The notes under the pieces: model-generated
What the model saw: the letters and a program-made list of their open reading frames with translations, nothing else
Databases searched by the model: none
Told to the model about the DNA's origin: nothing
Translations under genes and position numbers: made by a program
Assembly (NCBI GenBank): GCA_017469795.1
Contig: JAFUFT010000016.1
Coordinates: 16,555-80,554, forward strand
DNA: 64,000 nucleotides
Reading direction: 5' to 3'
From: Oscillospiraceae bacterium
Lineage (GTDB): Bacteria; Bacillota; Clostridia; Oscillospirales; Oscillospiraceae
Shown here: positions 5,599-53,165 of the stretch, in pieces
Numbering within the stretch: the first letter of the stretch is position 1
Layout of the letters: every line of letters starts with the position of its first letter

Positions 5599-5601
5599 AG
5601 T

Positions 5602-21703: not shown

Positions 21704-21754
21704 TGATTGCTTATTCCCTTCTTCCGCCCCTTGGGCAGATATGTATTGCACCGT

Positions 21755-33961: not shown

Positions 33962-34143
33962 AAAACGACCTCCGCCCAGTAGTCTTTTCGGGGTTCCGCC
34001 CGCAGGCATACTCCCGCATTATAGTAGGATATTTTATCATTTTTTCATTGAAAAAGCAAGCGCCGCGGTGCCTGTCACAGACGATCCGAGTTTGTCATAT
34101 TGCATAATTTCATCGACTGTGTATAATCGATTTTCATATAAAA

Positions 34144-34172
34144 TTGACAATTGCTTTCCCCTGTGATATGAT
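34144..34172 (+). promoter_or_regulatory. sigma-A type promoter for the alarmone synthetase gene
   Basis: TTGACA (34144-34149), a 17-nt spacer, then TATGAT (34167-34172). Confidence 0.5.
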
Positions 34173-34203
34173 ACCATCAGAATCCGTAATTGGAGGCGAT
34201 CCT

Positions 34204-34923
34204 ATGCCGGAAGAGAACAGGCAGTATCTGGTGCGTCTGGGCGGCATGTCCCGCATGGAGCAGGCCTTGATCACCCAGCTCTCCCAGGGGGAGCTGCAGG
34301 AATGGGTCCTGAAATACGCGGCGCTGTATCAGGAGATGATGGCCTATTACCGCTGCGCCATGATGGCGGTGGAAACGAAATTCAACGTCCTCAATGAGGA
34401 GCTGTCCCTGCGCTACGACCGAAACCCTATTGAGTCGGTCAAGACCCGCCTCAAGGCGCCGGAGAGCATCATCGACAAGATGACCCGCCGGGGATTCCCC
34501 CTGACGGTGGAGAGTATCGAAAAGAACATCCACGACATTGCAGGCGTCCGCGTGATCTGTGCCTTCCCCTCGGACATCTACAAACTGGCGGAGATGTTCC
34601 TACGGCAGGACGACATCCACCTGCTGGAGCGGAAGGACTACTTTGAGCATCCCAAGCCCAACGGCTACCGGAGCCTGCATCTGGTGGTGGAGACGCCGAT
34701 CTTCCTCCACGACTCCAAGCGGATGATGAAGGTGGAGGTCCAGTTCCGGACCATCTCCATGGACTGGTGGGCCAGTCTGGAGCACAAGATTCGGTATAAG
34801 AAGGATCTGGTGCTGTCAGAGGCCATCGATCAGGAACTGCTCAACTGCGCCGAGGTCAGCGCGGAGCTGGACCGGCGGATGGAACGGCTCCATCAGAGCG
34901 TTGCCAAACTCAATGACGGATGA
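34204..34923 (+). CDS. small alarmone synthetase (RelP/RelQ-type GTP pyrophosphokinase)
   Basis: The start is MPEENRQYL at 34204, after GGAGG. The RelA/SpoT synthetase core is present (DIAGVRVICAFPSDIY, PKPNGYRSLHLVV, VEVQFRTISMDWWASLEHK). There are no hydrolase or regulatory domains. Confidence 0.87.
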   Translation: MPEENRQYLVRLGGMSRMEQALITQLSQGELQEWVLKYAALYQEMMAYYRCAMMAVETKFNVLNEELSLRYDRNPIESVKTRLKAPESIIDKMTRRGFPLTVESIEKNIHDIAGVRVICAFPSDIYKLAEMFLRQDDIHLLERKDYFEHPKPNGYRSLHLVVETPIFLHDSKRMMKVEVQFRTISMDWWASLEHKIRYKKDLVLSEAIDQELLNCAEVSAELDRRMERLHQSVAKLNDG

Positions 34924-36662: not shown

Positions 36663-39089
36663 TCAATAAACGGTCAGCCGGGCGGCGCCGGAGATCTCCT
36701 CTCCGTCAGGGAACGCGGCCACACATCTGTAATAGTATCCGCTGTGTCCCGCGCCGGCGGGGAAGGACAGCCGGGTGGTCAACGCGCTGGGGAAGGCGCC
36801 GGATAGGTCGCTCCAGACGATGCCGTCCGCGCTGTACTGCCATCGGCAGGCGTCGGGCGTTCCCCGGATCTTCACCGCGAACACGGCGGTGGCTCCGGCG
36901 GGGACGGCTGTGTCCTGCGGCTGCACTTCAAAGCGGGTCAGGGAGAGCGTCCCGCTCTCCGACAGGACCGAGGTGCCGTCGGCAAAGGTCACAAGGCACC
37001 TGTAATGGTTCCCGGCGCGGCCGCCCTCAGCGGGGAAGGTGTAGGCGTCCGTGGCTGCAGAAGGTTCCTTGCTGAGGTTGACGGCGTGCCACAGGGCTCC
37101 GTCCTCGCTGTACTGCCAGTGGTATCCCGTCGGACTTCCGCAGGCGGACACGCGCATGGTCACGTCCTCCCCCTCCGGAGCGGATACGTCCGCCGGGTCG
37201 TCCAGGATCCCGTTTACCGTCAGCTCCACCGGTTCAGAAAACTCCATTCCCGCCGGGAACGTCACCTGACACCGGTACAGGAGCCCGTCGTAATAGGTGT
37301 GCGCCGGGAAGGTAAAGCGCGGGGAGGAGGCGGTAGAATATCCGGAAACATCCGTCCAGCTCTCCCCGTCGTCTTCGCTGAACTGCCACCGGCAGTCCGT
37401 CCAGTCCCCCTGGAGCCCCAAGGAAAGGGTCACGGTGCTGTCCGCAGGGACGGCGGCGCCTTCCGGCTGGGCGGAGATGCCGCAGACAGTCAGTCCGGCC
37501 GGGTCGGAGATGGCCATGGCTCCATCGGTAAATACCACGACGCAGTGGTACCTCTGTCCGCTGTACCAGGTCTCCGCCGGGAAGGTCAGGGTGTCGGTCC
37601 TGGCCGAGGGGCACTCCTCCGGGTCCACATTGTGCCAGACGACGCCGTTGCTGCTATACTGCCACAGATAGCTCTCCACCGCGCCGAGGACCCGCACCTG
37701 GAAGGACGCCTCCTCTCCGGCGATCACCGTCAGATCCCGGGGCTGAAGGGTGAAGTTCTGGATCATGTAGACCTTGGACTCTCCGTTGCTGAAGGACACG
37801 CCGATATAGTGGGTGCCGGTGTCCACCGTCCCACCGGGCACCGTGAACGCGTAGGGATACTCGGAGACCGTTTCCATCTGCTGGCCGTCGATATACCAGA
37901 CGGCGGTCAGGTGCCGGTCCGAGCAGGTGTAGGCCGTCAGGGTCACATCCCCTGACCAGTCGCCGGTGAACTCCGACAGAGGGGTATAGTATCCGGCTCT
38001 GTCCCTGAGACTGTGGAGGAGGGTCCGGTTGGAGGCAACGCCGGAATCATAGGCGGCGGTCATCTCGGGATTGTTGAAGATATAGTAAAGAGGATTGGTA
38101 AATCCAAAGTTGGTGTCCGAATAGATGATGCATTTGATCTCCGGATAGACCATCGTCAGGTAGGCGTACGCCTTCTCCACGTTCTCCGAGGCGAACAGCG
38201 TCAGGTTTTCCCTGCCCCGATACCAGTAGGAGCCGCCCTCGGTGATTACGATGGGCTTGCCGTGGAGCCGGGACAGGTTCACCACCTGCTGCATATTGAG
38301 CACAGGATTTCCGTAAGCGGCCACCCCGTAGAAGGCGTCCCGCTCCGTGTCCCCATTTCCGGCGTATCGGTTATAGTACAGGGACGCGCCGATCCAGTCT
38401 ACCCACTCGTCTCCGGGGTAGAAGCTGTCCATATCCACCTGATAGCCGCTGGAATAGTTGGGGGAGTACACCATCGCCATATCCGGGCAGTATACCCGGG
38501 CAGTCTCCACCACGTACCGGAACGCCTGGATGAACAACCAAGGCTCCGGCATGTCGCCCCAGACGTTGACCTCCCCGGCGATGCGCAGCATCAGGGGACA
38601 GTCCATGGTGGAAAGATAGGCGAAGGTCTCCCGGAGCTGGGCGTCATAGACCCCCTGCAGGATCAGGCTGCAGTCGGCGGCCTCCTGCTCAAAGTTGAAG
38701 TTCAGAAGGAAGATCCGATCCCCGCCGTTGAGGGAGGAGAACATATAGCTGTACTCCTCCAAGGCGTGAACGTCGCCCAGGCTGTAATAATAGGCAAAGG
38801 CGGTCTCTCCGGTCATGGCCGCCCCGTTGGTCAGGCCGTAGGTGTCCGCCGAGAGCCAGTCGGGATTGGTGGTCCGGCCGTAATATACGCCGTTTTTCGG
38901 TTCGAACTTGGCGCCGTAATAGGGGTAGGAGGCCGGCGCGTCGGCGGTGACGGCATAGATCTCCGTATTGGCGGAGAAGTCCTTGGCGGCGGAATTATAG
39001 GTGGTGGTGGCGCTGCTGGCAAAGCCCACACCCGTCAGGGTCAGCAGGATGCCCAGAATCAAAATCGCCGATACGGTCCGCTTTCCCAT
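36663..39089 (-). CDS. secreted clan GH-A (GH26-like) glycoside hydrolase with four C-terminal Ig-like repeats
   Basis: The 808-aa ORF has a signal peptide (SAILILGILLTLTGVGFA). It has a TIM-barrel-like catalytic region (LRIAGEVNVWG, EWVDWIGASLYYN, KPIVITEGGSYW). Four repeats of about 90 aa share the W(Q)Y/F...TFPA...G..Y.C.V.F.DG...S....L(T)V pattern (nt 36666-37754). There is no LPXTG motif or other anchor. Confidence 0.75.
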   Translation of the reverse strand: MGKRTVSAILILGILLTLTGVGFASSATTTYNSAAKDFSANTEIYAVTADAPASYPYYGAKFEPKNGVYYGRTTNPDWLSADTYGLTNGAAMTGETAFAYYYSLGDVHALEEYSYMFSSLNGGDRIFLLNFNFEQEAADCSLILQGVYDAQLRETFAYLSTMDCPLMLRIAGEVNVWGDMPEPWLFIQAFRYVVETARVYCPDMAMVYSPNYSSGYQVDMDSFYPGDEWVDWIGASLYYNRYAGNGDTERDAFYGVAAYGNPVLNMQQVVNLSRLHGKPIVITEGGSYWYRGRENLTLFASENVEKAYAYLTMVYPEIKCIIYSDTNFGFTNPLYYIFNNPEMTAAYDSGVASNRTLLHSLRDRAGYYTPLSEFTGDWSGDVTLTAYTCSDRHLTAVWYIDGQQMETVSEYPYAFTVPGGTVDTGTHYIGVSFSNGESKVYMIQNFTLQPRDLTVIAGEEASFQVRVLGAVESYLWQYSSNGVVWHNVDPEECPSARTDTLTFPAETWYSGQRYHCVVVFTDGAMAISDPAGLTVCGISAQPEGAAVPADSTVTLSLGLQGDWTDCRWQFSEDDGESWTDVSGYSTASSPRFTFPAHTYYDGLLYRCQVTFPAGMEFSEPVELTVNGILDDPADVSAPEGEDVTMRVSACGSPTGYHWQYSEDGALWHAVNLSKEPSAATDAYTFPAEGGRAGNHYRCLVTFADGTSVLSESGTLSLTRFEVQPQDTAVPAGATAVFAVKIRGTPDACRWQYSADGIVWSDLSGAFPSALTTRLSFPAGAGHSGYYYRCVAAFPDGEEISGAARLTVY

Positions 39090-39211: not shown

Positions 39212-40141
39212 TTATCTGCATTTCTCCAGAAGCTGTTCCCATTTTTCGTCCACATACTGTTGGGCGCTCTCCAGCATCCACTCGTTGCCGGGCTTGAAGC
39301 AGTGCTTAAACCGGCCCTGGAGACGCATATAGTCTTCAATAGGCTTTTTCTTCTTCGGCTCGTAGGTCAGGTGCCACACGCCCTCCTCCACCTCGTACAT
39401 GGGCCAGAGGCAGGTGTCCACCGCCAGCTGGGTGATGGTGGGCAGCAGCGCCGTCTCGTACTGCCAGCCTCTGGGGCAGGGGGACAGCACGTTGAGGAAG
39501 CAGGGCCCGTGGGTATAGATGGCCTTCTTTGCCTTCTCGTGGAGGTCCCGGAAGTTGCCGATGAAGGTGGTCTGGGCGGCATAGGGGATGCCGTGGGCCA
39601 CCATGATGGCGGTCAGATCCTTCTTGTCCTGCTGTTTGCCCTGCTTCTCCCGGCCCACGGGGGCGGTGGTGGCATTGGCAAACCGGGGCGTGGAGGAGGA
39701 CCGCTGGATGCCGGTGTTCATATAGGCCTCGTTGTCGTAGCAGACATAGACCATGTCATGTCCCCGCTCCATGGCGCCGGACAGGGACTGGAAGCCGATA
39801 TCATAAGTGCCGCCGTCGCCGCCGAAGGTGATGAACTTGAAGTTGTCCTGCACCTTGCCCCGGCGCTTGAGCGCCTCGTAGCAGGCCTCCACGCCGGAAC
39901 AGGTGGCCGCGGCGTTCTCAAAGGCGGTGTGGACGTAGCTCTCGGTCCAGGAGGTATAGGGGTACATGAAGGTGGAGACCTCCAGGCAGCCGGTGGCGTT
40001 GGTGACAACCGCCTTGTCCTCCGGCTCCAGGGCCCGCATGACCGCCCGGCAGGTGATGCCCGCGCCGCATCCGGCGCACAGCCGGTGGCCGCCCACAAAG
40101 CGTTCAGGCTTTTCCAGTTCTTTTTTGAATTGATAGGCCAT
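39212..40141 (-). CDS. 2-oxoacid:ferredoxin oxidoreductase, beta (TPP-binding) subunit (POR/VOR family)
   Basis: The 309-aa ORF has the motifs CAGCGAGI, FGGDGGTYDIGFQSLSGA and YDNEAYMNTGIQ. Confidence 0.9.
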   Translation of the reverse strand: MAYQFKKELEKPERFVGGHRLCAGCGAGITCRAVMRALEPEDKAVVTNATGCLEVSTFMYPYTSWTESYVHTAFENAAATCSGVEACYEALKRRGKVQDNFKFITFGGDGGTYDIGFQSLSGAMERGHDMVYVCYDNEAYMNTGIQRSSSTPRFANATTAPVGREKQGKQQDKKDLTAIMVAHGIPYAAQTTFIGNFRDLHEKAKKAIYTHGPCFLNVLSPCPRGWQYETALLPTITQLAVDTCLWPMYEVEEGVWHLTYEPKKKKPIEDYMRLQGRFKHCFKPGNEWMLESAQQYVDEKWEQLLEKCR

Positions 40142-40143
40142 GA

Positions 40144-41331
40144 TTATACCTCCTCCCGGACGCCCATATGGGTGTAGACTTCGCCGACCTGGCCGGTTTG
40201 CGCGAGGTGATGGAGCCGGTCGTAAACGGCGGCGATGTCCTTGGTGGACACGTCCCGGCCGCCCAGGCCGTAGACGATATTGATGAGTTTTGGCCGGCTC
40301 TCCAGATCGTACAGGGCGCTGCGGGTCTCGGCAAACAGCGGACCGCCACAGGCGGAAAAGCCCTCGGACTTGTCCATGACCGCCACGGCTCTGCAGTGTT
40401 TGAGGGCCCGGGCCAGTTCCTCTCCGGGGAAGGGCCGGAACACCCGGACCTTGACAAGCCCGACTTTTCGGCCTTCGGCCCGGAGCATGTCCACCGTGGC
40501 CTTGGCGGTGCCGGCGGTGGAGCCGATGACCACAATGGCCTCCTCCGCATCTTCCATACGGTATTCCTCAAAGAAACCGTACTTCCGGCCGGTCAGCGCC
40601 TCAAAGCGCCGGGCCTGCTCCAGGATGGCGGCTTTGGCGTTCTTCATGGCCTCGGCCTCCTGCTTCTTGTGCTCCATATAATAATGTGTCACGTCGTAGG
40701 GACCCACCGCCAGAGGTTCCCGGCTGTTGAGCAGGTAGTGCTCCGGGTTGTACTCGCCCACGAAGCCCTTGACCTCTTCGTCCTCCAGCAGCTCGATGTT
40801 CTCCACCGCGTGGGATGTGATGAAGCCGTCCTGGCAGATCATCACCGGCAGACGCACCTCCGGCGTCTCGGCGATGGGGAATGCCTGAACGTAGTTGTCG
40901 TAGACCTCCTGATTGTTCTCGGCGTAGATCTGGATCCAGCCGGCATCCCGGGCGCCCATGGCGTCGGAGTGATCGTTGTTGATGTTGATGGGGCCGCTGA
41001 GGGCACGGGTGGACACCGCCAGAACAATGGGCAGGCGGCTGGAGGCCGCCACGTACAGAAGCTCGTACATCAGCGCAAGGCCAGCCGAGGAGGTGGCGCT
41101 GATGGCCCGTCCGCCGGCAGCCGCCGCGCCCATGCATACGCTCATGGAACTGTGCTCGGACTCCACCGTCACCAGTTCCGTGTGAACCAGGCCGTCGGCC
41201 ACATACTGGGCGAAATACTGGGGGATCTCTGTGGAGGGGGTGATGGGGAATGCACCCATCACGTCCGGGTCGATCTGGCGCATGGCCACAGCCACAGCCT
41301 CGTTGCCGGAGAGCCGGTCAAGATGTGCCAT
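40144..41331 (-). CDS. 2-oxoacid:ferredoxin oxidoreductase, alpha subunit
   Basis: I trimmed the start to MAHLDRLSGNEAVAVAM at 41331, after GGAAGGAGG. The ORF has the motifs GAFPITPSTEI and ESEHSSMS. Confidence 0.9.
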   Translation of the reverse strand: MAHLDRLSGNEAVAVAMRQIDPDVMGAFPITPSTEIPQYFAQYVADGLVHTELVTVESEHSSMSVCMGAAAAGGRAISATSSAGLALMYELLYVAASSRLPIVLAVSTRALSGPININNDHSDAMGARDAGWIQIYAENNQEVYDNYVQAFPIAETPEVRLPVMICQDGFITSHAVENIELLEDEEVKGFVGEYNPEHYLLNSREPLAVGPYDVTHYYMEHKKQEAEAMKNAKAAILEQARRFEALTGRKYGFFEEYRMEDAEEAIVVIGSTAGTAKATVDMLRAEGRKVGLVKVRVFRPFPGEELARALKHCRAVAVMDKSEGFSACGGPLFAETRSALYDLESRPKLINIVYGLGGRDVSTKDIAAVYDRLHHLAQTGQVGEVYTHMGVREEV

Positions 41332-41630
41332 TATTCCGCCTCCTTCCATACAATGGCGTCAAAGGGACATGCGGTGATGCAGATCCCGCAGCCCTTACAG
41401 TGCATCAGGTCGAATTCGCCCCGCTTGCCGTCCTTCACAGGGATGGCGCTGTCGGGACAGTAGGGCACGCACAGCAGACACTGCTTGCATTTATCCTCCA
41501 AGAACACCGGCGTCTGGGTCCGCCAGTCGCCGGTATTGAACAGCAAGGATGTGGCCGGTTCGTAGATCTCCCCGCCGGGGGTCAGATCCTGCCAGGGGGA
41601 ATTTTCGTGAATATCTTTTGCGCGTTTCAT
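41331..41630 (-). CDS. 2-oxoacid:ferredoxin oxidoreductase, delta subunit (2x[4Fe-4S] ferredoxin)
   Basis: The 99-aa ORF has two Cys clusters (CKQCLLCVPYCP and CKGCGICITACP). Its stop overlaps the alpha-subunit start (TAATG). Confidence 0.87.
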   Translation of the reverse strand: MKRAKDIHENSPWQDLTPGGEIYEPATSLLFNTGDWRTQTPVFLEDKCKQCLLCVPYCPDSAIPVKDGKRGEFDLMHCKGCGICITACPFDAIVWKEAE

Positions 41631-42208
41631 CCCTGTACCTCCTCCATGGACGTTTTCAGCACCCGCATATTGCCCTCAATGACCTGGGGCTTGGACGCGA
41701 ACTTGTGGTGGAAGCTCTCTTCCATGTCTTTGGCGAATTTTTCCGGATCCACCACCCGGCTGACCTTCACCGTGGCCGCCAGCATGGGCGTGTTGGGGAA
41801 AACGGCACCCAGGATCTCCCTGGAGATCCGGTTGGCGTCGATGGTGCAGACCCGGCCCCTGTACCCTTTCAGCAGGGGGCGCAGTTCCTCGGGGGAGCGG
41901 CTGGAGTTGATGATGATGGCGCCGGACTCCTTCAGACCCGCGGTCACATCCACGCAGGAGATCAGTCCCTCGTCCACCACCACCACATAATCCGGCTCAT
42001 AGATGTTGGAGTGGATCCCGCAGCGCTCGGTGCTGATGCGGTTGTATGCGGTGATGGGCGCGCCGGACCGCTCGGGGCCGTATTCCGGAAAACCCTGCAC
42101 ATATTTGCCGGAGGAGAACGCCGCGTCCGCCAGAAGCAGGCACGCGGTCTTTGCGCCCTGGCCGCCCCGGCCGTGCCAGCGGATCTCCACCATATCCTGA
42201 CTGCTCAT
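41627..42208 (-). CDS. 2-oxoacid:ferredoxin oxidoreductase, gamma subunit
   Basis: I trimmed the start to MSSQDMVEIRWHGRGGQGAKTA at 42208, after AAGGAGG. The upstream part of the track ORF is the T-box leader. Confidence 0.87.
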   Translation of the reverse strand: MSSQDMVEIRWHGRGGQGAKTACLLLADAAFSSGKYVQGFPEYGPERSGAPITAYNRISTERCGIHSNIYEPDYVVVVDEGLISCVDVTAGLKESGAIIINSSRSPEELRPLLKGYRGRVCTIDANRISREILGAVFPNTPMLAATVKVSRVVDPEKFAKDMEESFHHKFASKPQVIEGNMRVLKTSMEEVQG

Positions 42209-42239
42209 ACTGAAAACCTCCTTGACGGTTGTAAAAGGC

Positions 42240-42495
42240 AAAATAAAAAGCCCCCATCCGTAACCGGACGAGAGCCAGACGGCTTTCGCTGTACCACCCG
42301 TTACTGCGTACCAACATACGCATCTCCCGATAACGGCGGAGGGCCGGCAGCGCCTACTGTGGTTCGGGCTGCAGTTCCGAAGTGATTTTCGGCAGCAGGC
42401 TACTCTCACCGGGCTTGCACCGTCCCCGGCTCGCTTTGGATTTGACCTGAAGCGTACTGTCTTCATCATCACATTTCAAGTGTTTTATGGAATTG
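42240..42495 (-). promoter_or_regulatory. T-box riboswitch leader, specifier AUC (Ile)
   Basis: Read on the minus strand. The GA/K-turn motif is GAUGAUGAAGACAGUA, with the AG bay AGCGAG and the distal loop GGUGCAA. The specifier loop is GAAA-AUC-A (codon at 42386-42384), then CUUC pairing with the GAAG upstream of AGUA. The T-box sequence is AACGGGUGGUACAGCG (RC of 42287-42302); its UGGU bulge fits an ACCA end (A73, as in tRNA-Ile). A long imperfect hairpin plus GGGGGCUUUUUAUUUU lies immediately before the first gene's RBS. Confidence 0.78.
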
Positions 42496-42500
42496 TGTAT

Positions 42501-42530
42501 ACTATAAAGGAAACCGCGCCCCTTTGTCAA
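42501..42530 (-). promoter_or_regulatory. sigma-A type promoter for the Ile T-box/oxidoreductase operon
   Basis: The minus strand reads TTGACA (RC of 42525-42530), an 18-nt spacer, then TATAGT (RC of 42501-42506). Confidence 0.55.
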
Positions 42531-42756: not shown

Positions 42757-43246
42757 ACAAGGAACCGGGAGGTGATTCCAATGAAGAATTAGAGCACGAC
42801 GATTCGGCGAGAGAATCGGTCGGAAGATTTGAAGGATTGATGTGTGTTATCTTGCATCTATAACTGAGAATGGATCAAACTCAGAAATAATCCGGGGAGA
42901 CCGGTGAAAATAGATCATAAGAAACAGGAGGAATCGTCCAATGTACTGATCGGTCATCCGTCCAGTAACCATTGTGATGGAGGCTCGGGTCCCATGAAAA
43001 TGTGAGCGGCGAATCCGCAAATCGTATGAGAATACACATGAGAGATATTCATTGAGGACAGTCCCAAAGAGAAATGATTCCTGGAGGAAAGCAGTACAAA
43101 TACAAATTTGAGGACACTCCGAAAACACGAAAATTGATCCAAAGAAAACAATTGAATAAGAAAGGTTGAGGAAGGTATGATTGAACCCATCCAGAGCTGA
43201 CCACCGTGTATGATTCGTAGCATCGTACACGGTGGTTGTTTTTTCT
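42757..43246 (+). ncRNA. candidate ~490-nt noncoding RNA, or a long leader of the MATE gene; class unknown
   Basis: The region is bounded by the consensus promoter at 42722-42750 and a strong intrinsic terminator at 43200-43246. No ORF longer than a few codons has an SD. Two counted 60-nt lines give 38-40% G+C, against 63% in a line of the adjacent MATE gene. The plus strand is visibly purine-rich, which supports plus-strand transcription. It has local hairpins (CGAUUC-ggcgaga-GAAUCG, CUGAG-n11-CUCAG, CCGG-ggaga-CCGG, GCGG-cgaau-CCGC). Confidence 0.4.
43200..43246 (+). terminator. strong intrinsic terminator
   Basis: ACCACCGTGTA(tgat)-tcgtagc-(atcg)TACACGGTGGT, an 11-bp perfect outer stem plus an inner GAT/ATC pairing, followed by TGTTTTTTCTCTCT. 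Confidence 0.85.
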
Positions 43247-43294
43247 CTCTGCGATTTATACAAAAATGGTCCGGGATCCCGGAACATCCTTGGC

Positions 43295-43323
43295 TTGCAG
43301 GCTTTTTTATCCTGTGCTACAAT
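43295..43323 (+). promoter_or_regulatory. possible own promoter of the MATE gene (extended -10)
   Basis: TTGCAG (43295-43300), a 17-nt spacer ending in TGC, then TACAAT (43318-43323). Confidence 0.45.
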
Positions 43324-43378
43324 ACCTGCTGTGTATTGTTTACGATTCGAAGGATTTTCAAAGGAGCCCGAAGCCAAT

Positions 43379-44740
43379 ATGGAACAGACCATGATCCGCG
43401 ACCTCACCGCCGGCAGCGTCGGAAAAGAGCTGCTGTGTTTTTCTTTCCCGTTTATGCTCTCCAACGCCCTGCAGACCATCTACAATCTGGTGGATATGGT
43501 CATTGTTGGCCAGTTTGTGGGCTCCGTTGGCCTCAGCGCCGTTTCCATCGGCGGCCAGCTCATGTGGCTCATGTGCTGCCTGGCCATTGGATACACCTCC
43601 GGCGGCCAGATCTTCATCTCCCAGCTGGTGGGCGCGGGTGATCACGCCGGTGTCCGCAGAACCATCGGAACGATCTTTACCACGATGGCCGGGTTCTCCC
43701 TGGTGATCACCACGCTGGGCGTCGTGTTCCGCGATCCCCTGCTTGCGCTGCTCAACACGCCCCCGGAGGCGCTGGATCAGGCCCGGGACTATGTGCTGAT
43801 CTGCGCCGCGGGCATGTTCTTTGTCTACGGGTACAACACCGTTTCCGCCATCCTGCGGGGCATGGGCGATTCCACCCGTCCCTTCCTCTTCATCGCCATC
43901 TCCGCCCTGTTGAATGTGATCCTGGACCTGATCTTTGTGGGTCCCCTCGGCATGGCCTCTGCCGGCGCCGCGCTGGCCACGATCCTGGCCCAGGCGGTGT
44001 CCTTCATCATTTCGATCATCTATCTCTACCGCCGGAAGGAGAGCTTTGGTTTTGACTTCAAGCTCCGCAGCTTCCTCCCCGACGGAAAAACCTTCGCCGC
44101 CCTGTCCCGGCTGGGACTGCCGCTGACGGTCCAGTCCACCGCCATCAACGTCTCCATGCTCTACGTCTCCGCCGGCGTCAACAGCTACGGCCTGGTCTTC
44201 TCCTCCACCTTCGGCATCGGCGGCAAGCTCCAGTCCGTCATGTTCATCATCACCAACTCCATCTCCACCGCCTCCGCCTCCATGTTCGGTCAAAACCTGG
44301 GTGCCGGAAAACACGACCGGGTCAAAAAGATCTTCTGGTTTGGAAATCTCTACTGCATGATTTTCTTCCTGGTGGTGACTGTGTTCTGCCTGACGATCCC
44401 GGTGCCGGTCTTCCGGCTGTTCACCCAGGATCCGGACGTCCTGGCCCAGGCGGCACACTACATGGTCGTCCAGGTGGTAATGTTCTCCGGGTTCGCCTCC
44501 ATGACCGCCGGGATCGCCCTGATCAACGGCATCGGCAACGGCTCCCTGAGCCTGATCACCGCCCTGCTGGATGGGGTCGTGGTCCGGATCGGGCTGTGTA
44601 TGCTCCTGGCAGGCCCCCTCGGCTGGGGCGTCTGGGGCTACTTCTGGGGGAACGCCCTGGCGGGCTATGTCAGCACTGTCATCGGCTGGCTCTACTATCT
44701 CACCGGCGCCTGGAAACGCAGGAAGCTGATGATCGACTGA
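43379..44740 (+). CDS. MATE family efflux transporter
   Basis: I trimmed the start to MEQTMIRDLTAGSVGKELL at 43379, after AAAGGAG. The ORF has the typical MATE N-terminus (FSFPFMLSNALQTIYNLVDMVIVGQF) and is a 12-TM protein. Confidence 0.9.
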   Translation: MEQTMIRDLTAGSVGKELLCFSFPFMLSNALQTIYNLVDMVIVGQFVGSVGLSAVSIGGQLMWLMCCLAIGYTSGGQIFISQLVGAGDHAGVRRTIGTIFTTMAGFSLVITTLGVVFRDPLLALLNTPPEALDQARDYVLICAAGMFFVYGYNTVSAILRGMGDSTRPFLFIAISALLNVILDLIFVGPLGMASAGAALATILAQAVSFIISIIYLYRRKESFGFDFKLRSFLPDGKTFAALSRLGLPLTVQSTAINVSMLYVSAGVNSYGLVFSSTFGIGGKLQSVMFIITNSISTASASMFGQNLGAGKHDRVKKIFWFGNLYCMIFFLVVTVFCLTIPVPVFRLFTQDPDVLAQAAHYMVVQVVMFSGFASMTAGIALINGIGNGSLSLITALLDGVVVRIGLCMLLAGPLGWGVWGYFWGNALAGYVSTVIGWLYYLTGAWKRRKLMID

Positions 44741-44888: not shown

Positions 44889-44936
44889 ATACTCGTAATG
44901 ACATTTGCATACGACTTGAAGAAAGGCGGTCTGACT

Positions 44937-46820
44937 ATGACGATCACAGATCCCAGCCTGACCCCGGAAAAACTGTACCTGTTCAATCAGGGCGTCTACT
45001 ATCACAGCTACCGGCTCTTCGGCGCCCATATCGTGGAGGGCGGCATCCGGTTCACCGTCTGGTGCCCGGACGTGGCACAGGTGGACGTGGTAGGCGATTT
45101 CAGCGGCTGGAACCCCTGCCCCTTGACCCAGCAGGGCACCACCGGCATCTGGTCCGCCGTGATCGACTCCGCGAAAGAGGGCGACCTCTACAAATACAGG
45201 ATCACCACCCGCTCCGGCGAGGTTTTTGACAAATCCGACCCTTACGCGTTCTCCGCGGAGGTCCGTCCCGGCACCGCATCCCGCGTGGTGTCTCTGGATG
45301 GCTACCAATGGCACGACGGCGCCTGGCGCAGCGCCCGGAAGCGGAAAAAGAGTCCCGGTCCCATGAACATCTACGAGGTGCATCTGGGCTCCTGGAAGCA
45401 GCGGGAAAATCCGGAGGATCCGAACCAGCCCTTCCTGACCTACCGGGAGCTGGCAGATCAGCTGATCCCCTACGCCCGGGACATGGGCTACACCCATCTG
45501 GAGCTGATGCCCGTCATGGAGCATCCCTTTGACGGCTCCTGGGGGTATCAGGTGACGGGCTTCTTTGCCCCCACCAGCCGCTACGGCTCCCCCAAGGACT
45601 TCATGTACTTCGTGGATCAGGCCCACCAGAACGGCCTGTCCGTCATACTGGACTGGGTCCCCGGGCATTTCTGCCGGGACAGCCATGGTCTGGGCCGGTT
45701 CAACGGAGAGATGCTCTACGAGGCGGCGGACCACCCGGAGTGGGGCACCTATAAATTCGACTTCACCCGCAGCGAGGTCTGCGGCTTCCTGATGTCATCG
45801 GCGGTGTACTGGCTGGGCTGCTACCACGTGGACGGCCTCCGGGTGGACGGTGTCACCAGTATCCTGTACCTGAATTTCGGCATCCCCGACTGGGACAAGA
45901 ACGCCAAGCACTTCAACAAGTACGGCACCGAGGAAAACCTCGAGGCCATCGACTTCGTCCGCAAGTTCAACGACGTGGTCCATACATACGCCCCCGGAAC
46001 CATCACCATCGCCGAGGAGAGCTCCGCCTGGCCCCACGTCACCGGCTCCACGGAGTCCGGCGGTCTGGGCTTTGACTTCAAGTGGGACATGGGCTGGATG
46101 AACGACACTCTGAACTACTGCAAGGCGGACTTCCCCTATCGGTCCGGCTGCCATCATCTGCTGACCTTCTCCATGGCCTACAATTTCTCGGAGCATTTCA
46201 TCATGCCCCTGAGCCACGACGAGGTCGTCCACGGAAAGTGCAGCCTCATGGGCCGGATGCCCGGAGACTATTGGCGGCAGTTCGCAGGGCTCCGTGCCCT
46301 GGCCCTGTACCAGATCACCCATCCCGGCGGAAAGCTCAGCTTCATGTCCACGGAATACGGTCCCTTCATCGAATGGCGGGAATACGAGTCCCTGGAGTGG
46401 TTCCTGCTGGACTACCCCTCCCACAAGGGGCATCAGAACTACGTGGCCATGCTGAACCATCTGTACAAGAATACCCCGGCCCTGTGGGAGGACGACCAGA
46501 CCTGGGAGGGCTTCCACTGGCTCGACGCCGACGACGCCGCCCAGAGCATCCTGCTCTACCGGCGCACCGGCAAAAAGAAGACCCAGAGCGTCACGGTGCT
46601 GCTGAACTTCCAGCCAGACGTGTATCAGGACTTCCGGATCGGCGTACCCTATGCAGGGGAATATGTGGAGATCCTCAACTCCGACCGGATCGAATTCGGC
46701 GGCAGCGGCCAGATCAACCCCGAGCCCCTCGTGGCGGAAAAAGTTCCCTGCCACGGCGAAAAATACTCCGTTCGCGTGACGGTCCCGCCCATCGGCGGCC
46801 TGATGCTGCGGAAAAAATAA
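44937..46820 (+). CDS. glgB: 1,4-alpha-glucan branching enzyme
   Basis: GH13 branching-enzyme sequence is present (FTVWCPDVAQVDVVGDFSGWN, GLSVILDWVPGHF, GLRVDGV, TIAEESSAWP, SHDEV). I prefer the ATG at 44937 (after GAAAGG) because the track start at 44898 lies about 10 nt from the -10 box. Confidence 0.92.
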   Translation: MTITDPSLTPEKLYLFNQGVYYHSYRLFGAHIVEGGIRFTVWCPDVAQVDVVGDFSGWNPCPLTQQGTTGIWSAVIDSAKEGDLYKYRITTRSGEVFDKSDPYAFSAEVRPGTASRVVSLDGYQWHDGAWRSARKRKKSPGPMNIYEVHLGSWKQRENPEDPNQPFLTYRELADQLIPYARDMGYTHLELMPVMEHPFDGSWGYQVTGFFAPTSRYGSPKDFMYFVDQAHQNGLSVILDWVPGHFCRDSHGLGRFNGEMLYEAADHPEWGTYKFDFTRSEVCGFLMSSAVYWLGCYHVDGLRVDGVTSILYLNFGIPDWDKNAKHFNKYGTEENLEAIDFVRKFNDVVHTYAPGTITIAEESSAWPHVTGSTESGGLGFDFKWDMGWMNDTLNYCKADFPYRSGCHHLLTFSMAYNFSEHFIMPLSHDEVVHGKCSLMGRMPGDYWRQFAGLRALALYQITHPGGKLSFMSTEYGPFIEWREYESLEWFLLDYPSHKGHQNYVAMLNHLYKNTPALWEDDQTWEGFHWLDADDAAQSILLYRRTGKKKTQSVTVLLNFQPDVYQDFRIGVPYAGEYVEILNSDRIEFGGSGQINPEPLVAEKVPCHGEKYSVRVTVPPIGGLMLRKK

Positions 46821-46842
46821 CCACTCAGAAGGAGCGATTTTA

Positions 46843-49272
46843 TTGTTTGCAGGAAAAGAAGACTTTAAGGTGGCATATGAGGCCAAGGCACTGGAAACCT
46901 TTGCAAAGCCCATCTCCGAATGTTCCACCTTTGAAAAATACGAGCTGCTGGTCTATCTGGTCTCCAGCGCCACCAGTAAGGTGCGGACCCAGACTTCCCA
47001 GCGCCACATCCGGAACAAGCAGAAAAAGGTCTACTACTTCTCCATGGAGTTCCTGATCGGCCGTCTGCTTCGGAACTATCTGATCAACCTGGAGATCGAG
47101 GAGCCGGTCCGGGACGGACTGCAGGATCTGGGCATCGACCTGGACGAGCTGTGCCAGTGCGAAAAGGACCCCGGCCTCGGAAACGGCGGTCTGGGCCGTC
47201 TGGCGGCCTGCTTCCTGGACTCCATGGCCTATCTGGGCGTGCCCGGCGTGGGCATGGGCATCCGTTACCGGTTCGGCCTGTTCCGCCAGAAGATCGTCAA
47301 CGGCTACCAGACCGAGGAGCCGGACAGCTGGCTGGAGAACGGCTATCCCTGGGAGACGAAGAAATCCGACCAGGCCATTCCCGTCCGGTTCGGCGGCTAT
47401 GTGGAAAGTGAGATCGGCGCCGACGGCCAGCCCCACTTCTTCACCAAGGGCGCCCAGACCGTGATGGCGGTACCCTATGAAGTGCCCATCGTGGGCTACG
47501 GCGGCAAGACCGTCAACGTGCTCCGGCTGTGGAGCGCTGAGCCCGTGGTGGAAAAGCTGGATCTGGCCGCCTTCAACCGGGGCGACTACTCCGGCGCCGT
47601 GAAGGACCGGAACGAGATCGAGGCCATCTCCTGCATTCTCTACCCCGACGACAGCACCGAGTCCGGCAAGGCCCTGCGGCTGAAGCAGGAATACTTCTTC
47701 GTGGCCGCCGGCGTGGCCGATATCGTCAAGACCTTCAAGCGCACCTATGGGGCGAACTGGGCCATCTTCCCTGACAAGATCAGCATCCACACCAACGACA
47801 CCCATCCGGCCCTGTGCGTGCCGGAACTGATGCGGGTGCTGGTGGACGAGGAAGGCGTGAGCTGGAATGAGGCCTGGGAGATCACCCGGAAGACCATCTC
47901 CTATACCAACCACACCATCATGCCCGAGGCGCTGGAGAAGTGGTCCATCGACCTGATGCGGGTGCTGTTGCCCCGGGTCTATCAGATCATCGAGGAGATC
48001 GACCGGCGGTATGTGGCCTCCTTTGACCGCAGCCTGCCCGATTGGCAGGAAAAACTCCGGAACACTGCCATTCTCTGGGACGGCCAGGTCCATATGGCCA
48101 ACCTTTCCATCATCGGCGCCTACAGCGTCAACGGCGTGGCCGCCCTGCACACGGAGATCCTCAAGAAAGAGGTGCTGAAGGACTTCTACGCCCTGACCCC
48201 GGAAAAATTCAACAACAAGACCAACGGCATCACCCACCGGCGCTTCCTGGCGGAGGCCAATCCGCCCCTGTCCCGGCTCATCACCGATACCATCGGGGAC
48301 AGCTGGATGGGCAACGCCTTTGAGCTGCAGAAGCTCCTTCCTTACCGGAACGACAAGGCCTTCCTCACCGAGCTGCGCAGCGTCAAGCGGCAGAACAAGG
48401 TCCGGCTGGGCAACTATATCGCCGACACCATGGGCATTGCCGTGGATCCGGATTCCATCTTTGACATCCAGGTCAAGCGCATCCACGCTTACAAGCGGCA
48501 GGTTCTGGCCGCTTTCAAGGTCATGCAGCTTTACAACCTGCTCAAGGAGAACCCCAAGGCGGACATCCCGCCCTACACCTTCATCTTCGCCGGAAAGGCC
48601 GCCGCAGGCTACGCCTTTGCCAAGGAGAGCATCAAGTATATCTGCTCCATCGCGGACCTGGTGAACTCCGATCCCGTGGTAAACAAAAAGCTGCGGGTGG
48701 TATTTCTGGAGAACTTCAACGTCTCCTCCGCCCAGCTCATCTACCCCGCTGCGGACATCTCCGAGCAGATTTCCACGGCCGGCAAGGAGGCCAGCGGCAC
48801 CGGCTGCATGAAGTTCATGTACAACGGCGCCGTGACCTTGGGCACCCTGGACGGCGCCAACGTAGAGATCAAAAACCAGGTCGGCGATGAGAACATTGCC
48901 ATCTTCGGCCTGACCTCTGACGAGGTCCTGCGGTACTATCAGCAGGGCGGCTATATCGCCTATGACACCTGCAACTCCGACCCCAGACTGACGAAGATCT
49001 GCAATCAGCTGGTGGACGGCACCTACGGCGGGCTGAGCTTCTACGGCATCCATGACGCGCTCTTCAAGGCCAACGACGAATACTTCGTCCTCAAGGACTT
49101 TGACTCCTACCTCAAGGCGTTCACCGATCTGTCGGAAATCTACCGGGATCCCATCCGCTGGGGCAGCATGTCCCTGACCAACATCGCCATGGCAGGTGAA
49201 TTTACCACCGACCGCACGATCTTCCAGTATTGCGACGAAATCTGGAAGATCCCCTGTGATAGAATCAAATAA
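46843..49272 (+). CDS. glgP: glycogen/maltodextrin phosphorylase (GT35)
   Basis: The 809-aa ORF has a TTG start 8 nt after GAAGGAG. It has the motifs GLGNGGLGRLAACFLDS and the PLP-site region EASGTGCMKFMYNGA. Confidence 0.92.
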   Translation: MFAGKEDFKVAYEAKALETFAKPISECSTFEKYELLVYLVSSATSKVRTQTSQRHIRNKQKKVYYFSMEFLIGRLLRNYLINLEIEEPVRDGLQDLGIDLDELCQCEKDPGLGNGGLGRLAACFLDSMAYLGVPGVGMGIRYRFGLFRQKIVNGYQTEEPDSWLENGYPWETKKSDQAIPVRFGGYVESEIGADGQPHFFTKGAQTVMAVPYEVPIVGYGGKTVNVLRLWSAEPVVEKLDLAAFNRGDYSGAVKDRNEIEAISCILYPDDSTESGKALRLKQEYFFVAAGVADIVKTFKRTYGANWAIFPDKISIHTNDTHPALCVPELMRVLVDEEGVSWNEAWEITRKTISYTNHTIMPEALEKWSIDLMRVLLPRVYQIIEEIDRRYVASFDRSLPDWQEKLRNTAILWDGQVHMANLSIIGAYSVNGVAALHTEILKKEVLKDFYALTPEKFNNKTNGITHRRFLAEANPPLSRLITDTIGDSWMGNAFELQKLLPYRNDKAFLTELRSVKRQNKVRLGNYIADTMGIAVDPDSIFDIQVKRIHAYKRQVLAAFKVMQLYNLLKENPKADIPPYTFIFAGKAAAGYAFAKESIKYICSIADLVNSDPVVNKKLRVVFLENFNVSSAQLIYPAADISEQISTAGKEASGTGCMKFMYNGAVTLGTLDGANVEIKNQVGDENIAIFGLTSDEVLRYYQQGGYIAYDTCNSDPRLTKICNQLVDGTYGGLSFYGIHDALFKANDEYFVLKDFDSYLKAFTDLSEIYRDPIRWGSMSLTNIAMAGEFTTDRTIFQYCDEIWKIPCDRIK

Positions 49273-49341
49273 GGAAACTGCGGCACCGGGGCTTCCCCGG
49301 CCGCCCGGATATTTCAGCCAATTTCATAAGGAGGGTCTCTC

Positions 49342-50475
49342 ATGCGTAAAAAAGAGTGTATTGCTATGCTTCTGGCCGGAGGCCAGGGCAGCCGCCTTCT
49401 GGCACTGACCAAGAAAAACGCAAAACCTGCGGTGTCCTTCGGCGGCAAATATCGGATCATCGATTTCAGCCTCTCCAACTGCGTCTCCTCCGGGATTGAC
49501 ACAGTGGGCGTCCTGACCCAGTACAAGCCTTTGATCCTGAACGGATATCTGGGCAACGGCGAAGCCTGGGATCTCAACAGCAGCGACGGCGGCGTCCACG
49601 TGCTTCCGCCTTATGAAACAGAGAGCGGCGGCTCCTGGTATCTGGGCACAGCCGACGCCATCTATCACAACATCGATTTCATCGACAGCTATGACCCCGA
49701 GTACGTGCTGATCCTCTCCGGCGACCATCTGTACATGATGGACTACAGCAAGATGCTTGACGAGCACAAGCGGAACGAGGCTGACCTGACCGTCTCCGTC
49801 ATGACCGTTCCCTGGGACGAGGCAAGCCGCTTCGGCATCATGGAAGCCGACGAGGAGGGCCGCATCACCCAGTTCGTGGAGAAGCCCCCGGAGCCCAAGA
49901 GCAACCTTGCCTCCATGGGCATCTACATCTTCTCCTGGCCTGTTATGCGGCGGATGCTCCTGGCGGATCACGAGGACAAGTCCTCCTCCCACGATTTCGG
50001 CAAGAACATCATCCCCATGATGCTTGCGGAGCATCTGCGTCTGTTCGTCTACCGGTTCTCCGGCTACTGGAAGGATGTAGGCACCATCGACAGCTACTAC
50101 GGCGCCAACATGGAGCTGCTGGAGAAGGATCCCGCGCTGGATCTCTACGGCAAGAGCCGCATCTACTCCAACTCCAACATCTACCCGCCTCACTATGTGG
50201 GTCCCGCGGGCTCTGTGGACAAGAGCATCATCTCCAACGGCTGCAAGATTTTGGGTCGGGTGGAGCACAGCGTTCTCGGCTCCAACGTCACCGTAGGCGA
50301 GGGCGCGCTGGTGAAGGATTCCATCCTGCTGCCCGGCGCCACCGTGGAGCCCGGCGCCAGGGTCTATCGTGCCATCGTTTCCGAACGGGCCACGATCCTC
50401 TCCGGCACCACCTTTGGCACGGAAGACGAAACTGCGCCCATCTCCCTGCTGGGCGACGACATGAAAAACGCGTAA
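49342..50475 (+). CDS. glgC: glucose-1-phosphate adenylyltransferase, catalytic subunit
   Basis: The 377-aa ORF has the motifs [21 protein letters not shown] and [15 protein letters not shown] and a C-terminal left-handed beta-helix. Confidence 0.92.
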
Positions 50476-50488
50476 GGAGGTATTCATC

Positions 50489-51616: not shown

Positions 51617-51650
51617 TTCAGAGGCTCCGGTCATAAAGGAGTATTGAATT

Positions 51651-53090: not shown

Positions 53091-53104
53091 ACAAATCCAT
53101 ACCT

Positions 53105-53141
53105 CCCGCCCCCCGGCGGAATCGCCGGGGGGCGGGCTTTT
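53105..53141 (+). terminator. GC-rich hairpin/terminator after glgA
   Basis: A 14-bp stem CCCGCCCCCCGGCG-gaat-CGCCGGGGGGCGGG, followed by CTTTTACGAACTTTTTT. Confidence 0.65.
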
Positions 53142-53165
53142 ACGAACTTTTTTGGAGGAATATCC

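Follow-up and report, generated by a model that had tools for sequence, protein, structure and literature searches.

The operon described here lies on the minus strand of the window, which is the whole 64,000-nucleotide stretch of Oscillospiraceae DNA that was analysed. A sigma-70-type promoter (TTGACA-18 nt-TATAGT, 42530-42501, 11 of 12 consensus matches) is located ~23 nt 5' of the start of an Rfam T-box match. The T-box leader RNA (42478-42239), composed of Stem I, Stem II, Stem IIA/B, Stem III, an antiterminator/terminator and a U-tract, precedes four genes encoding the gamma, delta, alpha and beta subunits of a 2-oxoacid:ferredoxin oxidoreductase (OFOR).

The gamma subunit (193 aa, 42208-41627), preceded by the Shine-Dalgarno sequence AAGGAGG at 42223-42217, matches Pfam POR (137.5 bits) and TIGR02175 PorC_KorC (205 bits, cut-off 81). 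Its stop codon overlaps the start of delta (ATGA), a two-[4Fe-4S] ferredoxin-like protein (99 aa, 41630-41331) with two CxxCxxCxxxCP motifs and a 90-bit match to TIGR02179 PorD_KorD (cut-off 60). The alpha ORF (41349-40144) contains Pfam POR_N and PFOR_II domains and scores 481 bits with PorA_Arch, below the cut-off of 550; translation probably starts at the ATG at 41331, which follows GGAGG, overlaps the delta stop (TAATG) and gives a protein of 395 aa, and its homologues are 392-395 aa long. Beta (309 aa, 40141-39212) carries a TPP_enzyme_C domain and scores 353 bits with PorB PRK11865 (below the cut-off of 405). It has a TPP-binding site and a proximal Fe-S cluster, with the GDG...N motif and Cys ligands aligning to 9bt4_C and 1b0p. 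The Pfam and NCBIfam domains thus bear out the gamma-delta-alpha-beta enzyme of the original prediction. An intrinsic terminator of 10 pairs (9 G-C) with the tail TTTTCTTTGC (39203-39180) lies 9 nt past the beta stop codon. Read from sequence, promoter, leader, gamma, delta, alpha, beta and terminator form a self-contained operon with coupled genes.

The covariance model RF00230 covers 42478-42261 over its full length (model positions 1-219 of 219) at 76.1 bits, with E = 3.5e-16 in a 2-kb region and 1.1e-14 across the whole window. A default Rfam scan at the gathering score reports nothing for the leader, because 76.1 bits is under the curated threshold of 93; chance is nevertheless excluded by far.

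In Stem I, the stretch GAUGAUGAAGACAGUA (42470-42455), assigned by reading the sequence, holds the GA (K-turn) motif together with the specifier-loop S-turn's 5' half; in the helices flanking the motif (A2 columns 9-10/115-116 and 17-20/108-111) pairing is 100% and compensatory swaps occur. The AG bulge AGCGAG (42435-42430) and the distal loop GGUGCAA (42421-42415) form, in known T-boxes, the platform touching the tRNA elbow. Both are near-invariant in 41 related leaders and recur in ileS leaders retrieved from metagenomes. The specifier loop GAA-A-AUC-A (42390-42383) presents the isoleucine codon AUC at 42386-42384, placed there by the Rfam alignment, and is followed by CUUC (42382-42379), which pairs with GAAG (42464-42461) 5' of AGUA.

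The conserved T-box sequence AACGGGUGGUACAGCG (42302-42287) contains the bulge UGGU (42296-42293), the predicted partner of a tRNA whose 3' end reads ACCA (A73). It lies in an antiterminator helix with a 7-nt bulge (42300-42264, -12.5 kcal/mol as a lone hairpin), whose helices 9 and 10 are 96-98% paired across leaders, with compensatory changes. The 3' arm of this helix is overlapped by the 5' arm of an intrinsic terminator of 12 pairs and a loop of 4 (stem 42276-42249, U-tract 42248-42239, tail TTTTTATTTT). At -20.5 kcal/mol the terminator is more stable than the antiterminator; it is 83.5% paired across leaders, and four of its pairs show double changes. All hallmarks named by the original prediction (GA motif, AG bulge, distal loop, specifier loop, T-box sequence and terminator) were therefore located, together with the CUUC/GAAG pairing and the UGGU bulge. 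The outer A1 pair of the antiterminator is a G-G mismatch both in the window and in its nearest relative, the rumen MAG L002 (RUG12379; 97-99% identity).

Of 73 related loci with readable upstream DNA, 41 carry this leader in front of the same four genes, and they come from Oscillospiraceae, Butyricicoccus and Anaerovoracaceae; an Ile T-box before an OFOR operon thus occurs in many gut and rumen Clostridia. We found no earlier description of this arrangement among the papers searched. Across the leaders, 88% of helix cells are paired, whereas slid controls reach ~40%. Changes on both sides are seen in 28 pairs, among them pairs in the helices by which the specifier register is set. AUC is invariant in all 41 leaders, preceded by A, G, C or U, as is GGUGGU, which includes UGGU. 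A codon-blind pattern built from Stem I of the OFOR leaders gave 120 metagenome matches, of which 118 read AUC and two read GGC before glyQ; 82 of the AUC leaders precede IleRS genes and about 11 precede OFOR gamma. The register is valid because the same reading gives AUC before ileS and GGC before glyQ. Covariance alignment, invariance and this control agree on the isoleucine specifier that had been claimed. At the sequence level, the leader is a canonical transcription-attenuating T-box, specific for tRNA-Ile(GAU) and controlling the OFOR operon.

About 32 homologous operons, mostly from Lachnospiraceae, are without a T-box, so that this enzyme clade is not obligatorily bound to isoleucine. 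The gene neighbourhoods of the operon are uninformative on function, and ilv motifs are absent from every related locus examined.

The leader shares its architecture with the transcriptional-class Ile T-boxes of ileS (RF00230): K-turn, GAA-N-AUC-A, AG bulge, distal loop, Stem II, Stem IIA/B, Stem III, UGGU and terminator. Stem I is nearly identical in sequence, such that the single OFOR-derived pattern retrieved the 82 IleRS leaders. Unlike these, the leader described here serves an OFOR operon; its targets include no tRNA synthetase, no transporter and no ilv gene. No T-box was found by RF00230 before the window's own ileS, and a leader that is off by default would not be compatible with a housekeeping enzyme for pyruvate; both points mark the OFOR as accessory. 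A second T-box in the window (1917-1730, minus strand, 66.7 bits, E 2.8e-12), proposed earlier as an internal control, has the expected specifier UGC and bulge UGGA ahead of cysE and a cysS gene that the window edge cuts off after its start; a GNAT acetyltransferase gene ahead of cysE had been overlooked.

Following the established T-box mechanism, charged tRNA-Ile would be unable to stabilise the antiterminator when isoleucine is plentiful, and the stronger terminator would stop RNA polymerase ahead of gamma. Under isoleucine shortage, the anticodon and the free ACCA end of uncharged tRNA-Ile would pair with AUC and UGGU, respectively, locking the antiterminator and allowing transcription of the operon. 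Because isoleucine shortage would switch the operon on, the reductive (synthase) direction is the most likely one, in which reduced ferredoxin, CO2 and an acyl-CoA would yield an isoleucine-specific 2-oxoacid. An anabolic, isoleucine-supplying role is thus likely, as originally proposed, and the Ile T-box marks this OFOR as a likely starvation-induced maker of an isoleucine precursor.

The accompanying VOR-type label is not supported. Alpha, beta and delta reach 481, 353 and 84 bits with POR models, compared with 322, 290 and 70 bits with VOR models, and gamma likewise scores higher on POR models; the equivalog cut-off is reached by none of the four subunits. Alpha and beta are 55% and 51% identical to the Thermotoga maritima POR, the nearest solved structure is the M. 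acetivorans POR (PDB 9bt4), and a neighbour-joining tree places the window's clade as sister to the TM/HP PORs. The PRK07119 VorB model gives only 129 bits against a cut-off of 399, and the C. sporogenes-type bacterial VOR, acting on branched-chain 2-oxoacids, is assigned to a different clade. Judged by these scores and the tree, the enzyme is an OFOR of the POR-like clade, not a VOR-like one.

The equivalents of the YPITP Thr, catalytic Arg, PINI, CLEV and Asn996, residues lining the pyruvate site of solved PFORs, are the same as in true PORs, in T-box and non-T-box groups alike; this POR-like pocket, compared with those of PORs, is no proof against branched substrates. The roles of these residues are those in the D. 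africanus PFOR structure, where PINI corresponds to Leu121/Ile123 and CLEV to Ile843. Two substitutions are clade-specific: the residue following PINI, beside the equivalent of Ile123, is Asn instead of the His, Trp or Phe of PORs, and the catalytic Arg is preceded by Thr in place of Asn. The P. furiosus VOR falls in the same broad POR-like superclade, and VOR models still score 290-322 bits on the window enzyme. PORs of the T. maritima TM0015-0018 type and of methanogens (PDB 9bt4) share the gamma-delta-alpha-beta plan and the YPITP/Arg/PINI/CLEV/Asn pocket; the window enzyme differs in its tRNA-Ile control, its scores below POR equivalog cut-offs and its Asn and Thr substitutions.

Two isoleucine-specific substrates come into question. 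We slightly favour propionyl-CoA over 2-methylbutyryl-CoA, because the four subunits and every mapped pocket residue are POR-like and because de novo synthesis has no isoleucine-specific intermediate other than 2-oxobutyrate; this choice is the weakest step of the argument. Taken whole, the explanation that we tentatively prefer, with a probability a little short of even, is that the Ile T-box controls conversion of propionyl-CoA and CO2 to 2-oxobutyrate, which would enter the ordinary ilv pathway. Ferredoxin-dependent 2-oxobutyrate synthase is not known to have a dedicated gene. That activity, an isoleucine-specific reductive carboxylation by an anaerobe OFOR, is known only biochemically or by labelling, rumen communities included, and is just what would be expected of a POR-like enzyme induced by isoleucine starvation. 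According to PMC7476758, which cites Buchanan 1969, Eikmanns 1983, Monticello 1984 and Sauer 1975, anaerobes have been documented biochemically to carboxylate propionyl-CoA to 2-ketobutyrate with ferredoxin on the way to isoleucine.

The route proposed originally, reductive carboxylation of 2-methylbutyryl-CoA to 2-oxo-3-methylvalerate and transamination to isoleucine, would salvage a branched fatty acid abundant in gut and rumen. It is possible but rather doubtful. All T-box evidence applies to it equally, one further enzyme suffices, which fits the operon's presence in amino-acid-fermenting Anaerovoracaceae, and the nearest relative comes from the rumen. Methanobrevibacter ruminantium requires 2-methylbutyrate, with reductive carboxylation as the proposed isoleucine route (PMC2812497), and methanogen anabolic VORs likewise make branched-chain amino acids from volatile fatty acids (PMC2812497; PMC13285125). 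Methanogen and clostridial VorB-type (PRK07119) VORs, however, belong to a different OFOR clade, and T-box control is unreported for them. A POR-like scaffold can evolve branched-chain specificity, as the archaeal VOR scores suggest, and the clade-specific Asn could, speculatively, enlarge the pocket. Against this, each subunit is nearer to POR than to VOR models, and a substrate branched at C3 should require more room than the POR-identical pocket offers. VORs usually do not discriminate between the keto acids of Val, Leu and Ile, but the specifiers seen are always Ile. The sole bacterial VOR with genetic and enzymatic evidence, that of C. sporogenes ('porA', CLOSPO_00146-00149), is a clostridial OFOR of four subunits that carries a POR annotation but in fact uses branched-chain 2-oxoacids (bioRxiv 10.1101/401489; PMC13290082), a case in which annotation leaves the OFOR substrate unfixed. 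Unlike the window enzyme, it is catabolic, producing branched short-chain fatty acids, belongs to another clade without an Ile T-box, and clusters with phosphotransbutyrylase and butyrate kinase (ptb/buk), which are absent here. The proposal had overlooked the 2-oxobutyrate alternative, equally old, equally isoleucine-specific and better fitted to a POR-like pocket; a 2-oxobutyrate synthase may nonetheless have a second activity on 2-methylbutyryl-CoA.

It is improbable that the enzyme acts as a plain pyruvate:ferredoxin oxidoreductase or pyruvate synthase, not dedicated to an isoleucine precursor, with an Ile T-box that boosts pyruvate or acetyl-CoA for branched-chain amino acids, for example by a citramalate route. 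The best HMM matches are 'pyruvate synthase subunit PorA/PorB', close homologues are publicly annotated 'pyruvate ferredoxin oxidoreductase', the pocket is that of PORs, and the Lachnospiraceae homologues lacking a T-box may be housekeeping enzymes. Pyruvate, however, is not isoleucine-specific, yet AUC is unchanged in 41 of 41 leaders from at least three families; attenuation that is off by default would be a strange way to regulate a central enzyme, and all subunits miss the POR equivalog cut-off. An oxidative enzyme degrading isoleucine-derived or other 2-oxoacids for energy, with the T-box a regulatory oddity or decayed element, is very improbable: OFORs of amino-acid fermenters, which several hosts are, are usually oxidative (bioRxiv 10.1101/401489; PMC13290082), but isoleucine breakdown induced by uncharged tRNA-Ile would be counter-productive, the leader is intact in promoter, covarying helices and terminator under purifying selection in 41 species, and ptb/buk or acyl-CoA ligase partner genes are absent from the examined neighbourhoods.

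Some of the T-box operons occur in asaccharolytic Anaerovoracaceae, which possibly have few biosynthetic genes; such a host would favour the shorter route from 2-methylbutyrate.

The OFOR operon, transcribed from the minus strand, opens with a sigma-70-type promoter (TTGACA-18-TATAGT, 42530-42501) followed by a 240-nt T-box leader (42478-42239). The leader matches Rfam RF00230 end to end (model positions 1-219 of 219) at 76.1 bits, with an E-value of 3.5e-16 for the local region and 1.1e-14 for the whole window, and is an ordinary member of the known T-box family. Stem I carries a GA/K-turn motif at its base (42470-42455, read from sequence) and a specifier loop, GAA-A-AUC-A (42390-42383, sequence and Rfam alignment), composed of an S-turn (AGUA...GAA), the codon and a purine. 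The AG bulge AGCGAG (42435-42430) and the distal loop GGUGCAA (42421-42415), both nearly invariant in 41 leaders, form the predicted tRNA-elbow platform. The T-box sequence with its UGGU bulge (42302-42287) lies upstream of a 12-bp terminator with a U-tract (42276-42249, terminator search). All of these motifs lie where the original prediction had placed them.

The 3′ arm of the antiterminator doubles as the 5′ arm of the terminator, with folding energies of -20.5 kcal/mol for the terminator hairpin versus -12.5 kcal/mol for the antiterminator. The terminator is the more stable and the two share nucleotides, an arrangement that keeps the switch off by default, as a T-box should be. Uncharged tRNA-Ile would steady the antiterminator, allowing the operon to be read through; charged tRNA-Ile would not, and transcription would end at 42249. 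In the window and in L002, a rumen metagenome-assembled genome (MAG), the outer pair of antiterminator helix A1 (42264-42300) is a G-G mismatch (CCGG vs CCCU), and the same change gives the terminator one extra pair; the switch in the window species looks biased further to 'off' than in the other 39 leaders.

In the covariance-model alignment the codon slot holds AUC, and the usual purine and the Stem I helix come next. Comparison of 41 aligned leaders reveals the pattern GAA-N-AUC-A-CU(U/C)C, in which AUC is present in 41/41, N is A, G, C or U, and the purine A follows the codon in 40; GGUGGU is invariant. De novo folding of these leaders with RNAalifold was largely wrong; the structure was written by hand from the Rfam alignment and then tested on the 41 sequences. 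In the T-box structure 88% of cells pair, versus ~40% with partners slid 1-3 columns, and 28 pairs change on both sides, values that no shuffle reached. Pairing reaches 96-98% in the antiterminator, 83.5% in the terminator and 100%, with both GC-to-AU and AU-to-GC swaps, in the two helices that frame the specifier loop; these two helices fix the specifier register. The UGGU bulge fits the A73-CCA end of tRNA-Ile, A73 being the identity that we take this tRNA to have; the window itself contains no tRNA genes.

A codon-blind scan of metagenome contigs, run with the Stem I pattern and NNN in place of the codon, returned at least 120 matches. Among the 120 listed, the codon is AUC in 118 and GGC in two. 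Isoleucyl-tRNA synthetase lies downstream in 82 of the 95 listed matches with a readable ORF, both GGC leaders (contigs L104 and L189) sit before glyQ, and the OFOR gamma gene follows ~11 of the 120 listed (tblastn). Since the same register yields AUC before ileS and GGC before glyQ, it reads the right amino acid in these positive controls. Judged by its sequence, the OFOR leader is a sibling of the ileS leaders. The covariance-model alignment, the comparison of 41 leaders and the codon-blind scan, three independent lines of evidence, thus uphold the original assignment of AUC (Ile) as specifier. Asn (AAU) and Ser (UCA) were considered as specifiers and rejected, as the base before AUC varies freely, UGGU suits A73 and not G73, and ileS and glyQ are read correctly. 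The L104 and L189 leaders combine an Ile-type Stem I distal sequence with a GGC specifier and a UGGA bulge, which looks like specifier switching between related T-boxes.

Rfam's curated gathering score for T-boxes is 93, and both T-boxes in the window score below it. The default Rfam scan of the window at gathering thresholds returned nothing for this reason, and E-value mode alone displayed the two leaders. Standard annotation at curated thresholds would therefore miss both T-boxes of this GC-rich (61%) genome, and the 93-bit score misses real conserved T-boxes in GC-rich Clostridia. The second leader, a Cys T-box with specifier UGC and bulge UGGA (1917-1730, minus strand; RF00230, 66.7 bits), is followed on the same strand by genes called as a GNAT acetyltransferase (1662-1126) and cysE (1141-413), and then by the cysS N-terminus, which runs off the window start. 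It had been described as preceding cysE-cysS; the T-box, its codon, its bulge and both genes were confirmed, the GNAT gene having been overlooked.

The window also encodes ileS (18902-21751, minus strand, real start ~21703; TIGR00392, 962 bits), downstream of sepF and divIVA. Only a ~50-nt spacer follows divIVA, so ileS has no T-box, which leaves the OFOR, rather than the synthetase, under Ile T-box control within these 64 kb. The listed metagenome Ile T-boxes with the same type of Stem I mostly precede ileS, whereas that of the window precedes the OFOR operon.

Below the leader, a Shine-Dalgarno sequence (42223-42217) precedes gamma (42208-41627; Pfam POR, best NCBIfam model PorC), delta with two 4Fe-4S clusters (41630-41331; Pfam Fer4), alpha (probable start 41331, end 40144; Pfam POR_N and PFOR_II) and TPP-binding beta (40141-39212; Pfam TPP_enzyme_C), and a strong terminator (39203-39180, terminator search) closes the operon; all lie on the minus strand. 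Gene junctions overlap as ATGA and TAATG, and the four genes are translationally coupled. Domains and gene order agree with the four-subunit OFOR originally proposed, and the TPP motif, the YPITP motif and the Fe-S cysteines are all present. An exact-sequence look-up of beta found nothing on record. The operon stands alone: a MATE transporter gene and an ORF flank it at one end, a secreted GH26/Ig-domain protein at the other. The ORF upstream of the promoter (42847-43479, minus strand) encodes 210 aa without a Pfam match, and the downstream gene (36663-39089, minus strand) encodes 808 aa with weak matches to GH26 and immunoglobulin domains; beside the operons of other genomes, neither gene is conserved.

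Eighty loci from species-representative genomes, with alpha relatives at 68-97% identity, were compared. The gamma-delta-alpha-beta order is kept in all 80, and an nhmmer profile, used in place of a 13-mer T-box regular expression that failed to find over half of the orthologous leaders, places a leader homologue directly upstream of gamma in 41. The same leader, with AUC invariant, thus recurs in orthologous operons, a check that had been suggested with the original prediction. Among the remaining loci, ~32, mostly Lachnospiraceae, have no leader by profile search and seven are cut off upstream; RF00230 at E-values up to 0.1 gave zero matches in eight leader-less loci. T-box-positive operons occur in Oscillospiraceae (including L002, 97-99% identical to the window), in Butyricicoccus and related Eubacteriales MAGs, and in the Anaerovoracaceae genera Emergencia, Hornefia, Aminicella, Senimuribacter and Mogibacterium. 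In a neighbour-joining tree of alpha and beta, all 80 form one clade beside the Thermotoga maritima and Helicobacter pylori pyruvate oxidoreductases (PORs), with T-box operons on most deep branches and three adjoining Lachnospiraceae. The simplest reading of this tree is that the T-box association would be old and was lost by Lachnospiraceae.

Neighbouring genes in the 80 loci (sugar ABC and MFS/MATE transporters, regulators, unknowns) are not conserved, and no conserved aminotransferase, ilv, CoA ligase or ptb/buk partner lies beside the operon. A motif search of the window and the locus DNA examined found no KARI, DHAD or IPMS/CimA motifs. In ~20 loci, almost all from Lachnospiraceae without a T-box, beta is directly followed on its own strand by the gene for a conserved ~301-aa protein with no Pfam match (L039-L050, L056, L061, L070 at 9201-10106, and L080, for example). 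This may be an unrecognised fifth gene of the T-box-less version of the operon. At the T-box-less locus L067, a 578-aa indolepyruvate-oxidoreductase-like alpha subunit (4476-6212), with a POR_N-like N-terminus and a Fer4 C-terminus, directly follows OFOR beta.

The original prediction had assigned the enzyme to the 2-ketoisovalerate (VOR) type, which the subunit models do not support. POR models outscore VOR models for all subunits (alpha scores 481 vs 322, beta 353 vs 290 and delta 84 vs 70; the best matches of gamma are PorC), and scores on the subfamily models TIGR02175 and TIGR02179 exceed the cut-offs. Scores stay below the POR equivalog cut-offs (PorA_Arch 481 vs 550, PorB 353 vs 405, PorC 181 vs 270, PorD 84 vs 120), so we call the enzyme POR-like and not POR. 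They also stay below the VOR equivalog cut-offs (PRK08366 alpha 322 vs 646, PRK11864 beta 290 vs 405, PRK09623 delta 70 vs 166), and the bacterial/methanogen VorB model PRK07119 gives 129 bits against a cut-off of 399. The mapped pocket residues likewise equal those of true PORs. In the Desulfovibrio africanus pyruvate:ferredoxin oxidoreductase, the pyruvate site is presumably lined by Thr31, Arg114, Leu121, Ile123, Ile843 and Asn996; the aligned residues here are Thr, Arg, Ile, Ile, Val and Asn, equal to those of the T. maritima and Methanosarcina barkeri PORs in T-box-positive and T-box-negative operons alike. Close to these positions, alpha residues ~113-131 (window ~41010-40955) read PINI-N-NDH, with Asn after PINI where PORs have His, Trp or Phe, and the Asn before the catalytic Arg is replaced by Thr in the T-box group or Cys in Lachnospiraceae.

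Among solved structures, the M. acetivorans four-subunit POR (9bt4) is the closest. Against reference sequences taken from Table S6 of PMC13290082, alpha and beta share 55% and 51% identity with T. maritima POR; for the PORs of H. pylori and methanogens the figures are 40-47%. The Clostridium sporogenes VOR (CLOSPO_00146-00149), for which bioRxiv 10.1101/401489 and PMC13290082 give genetic and enzymatic support, belongs to another clade and adjoins ptb/buk, whereas neither ptb/buk nor acyl-CoA ligase neighbours were found in the window or the 80 loci. Among the Blautia and Intestinibacter OFORs in the accessible portion of PMC13290082, we found no assayed member of the clade.

We infer the tie of the OFOR to isoleucine from the way the operon is regulated: an OFOR that is off by default and induced by Ile starvation should serve isoleucine supply and should therefore run as a synthase with reduced ferredoxin and CO2. 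PORs generally accept 2-oxobutyrate. Since the predicted pocket is POR-like and 2-oxobutyrate is the one Ile-specific intermediate, matching a specifier that is never Val or Leu, we tentatively favour propionyl-CoA to 2-oxobutyrate as the reaction. For this conversion in anaerobes, PMC7476758 cites Buchanan 1969, Eikmanns 1983, Monticello 1984 and Sauer 1975. The same OFOR might instead convert 2-methylbutyryl-CoA to 2-oxo-3-methylvalerate, an Ile-specific reaction of anaerobes (e.g., PMC2812497) that would need fewer enzymes and would suit an operon found in amino-acid fermenters and rumen organisms; the sequence lends it no support and a better-fitting alternative exists, but we regard it as a live, somewhat less likely route. 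The enzyme could also act on both acyl-CoAs. The anabolic logic originally proposed for this Ile T-box and OFOR operon stands, and the sequence does not support the VOR-type label and 2-methylbutyrate reaction attached to it. The POR-identical pocket would suit a plain housekeeping POR, but Ile-specific control argues for a physiological substrate other than pyruvate and makes this improbable. For an operon that isoleucine starvation should induce, a catabolic role is scarcely credible.

On balance, the clade probably represents a dedicated tRNA-Ile-controlled 2-oxoacid synthase, its riboswitch copied from an ileS leader and kept in Oscillospiraceae, Butyricicoccus and Anaerovoracaceae; at least in the window organism, this operon is what the Ile T-box controls, and ileS has no T-box. 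If so, a gene would for the first time be assigned to the ferredoxin-dependent reductive carboxylation to isoleucine from propionate and/or 2-methylbutyrate known from labelling studies of rumen and gut anaerobes since the 1960s. The T-box target, the breadth of the pairing's conservation and the handle on an orphan isoleucine pathway are new. No paper linking a T-box to an OFOR appeared in the literature searched, and Wels 2008 and the supplements of Sun 2013 were negative for this link; prior mention is possible in Vitreschak 2008, Gutierrez-Preciado 2009, Gibson 2015 and Gibson 2016, which lay outside the search. T-boxes are reliable function labels, and a conserved AUC marks genes wanted when isoleucine runs out. 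The label ties a widespread operon, whose current annotation is the generic 'pyruvate ferredoxin oxidoreductase', to the supply of isoleucine in Clostridia that abound in gut and rumen, and offers testable candidate genes for the old pathway from propionate or 2-methylbutyrate. It is also relevant to the reliance of these bacteria on volatile fatty acids and to cross-feeding in rumen and colon, to metabolic models that now place the enzyme wrongly in pyruvate metabolism, and to biotechnology with CO2-fixing OFORs.

Elsewhere in the window, ~17 kb from the operon, lies a 436-aa CoA-transferase of the acetyl-CoA hydrolase/transferase family (59661-60971, minus strand), which may activate propionate or 2-methylbutyrate or may simply be a butyrate-pathway enzyme. 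A complete glycogen cluster (44898-56342, plus strand) encodes branching enzyme, glycogen phosphorylase, glgC, glgD, glycogen synthase and a 1058-aa amylase/4-alpha-glucanotransferase fusion. Two MiaB-like radical-SAM methylthiotransferases with UPF0004, Radical_SAM and TRAM domains are encoded on the minus strand (2483-3811 and 32555-34009), and a small RelA/SpoT-domain alarmone synthetase on the plus strand (34144-34923), with miaA, mutS and mutL nearby.
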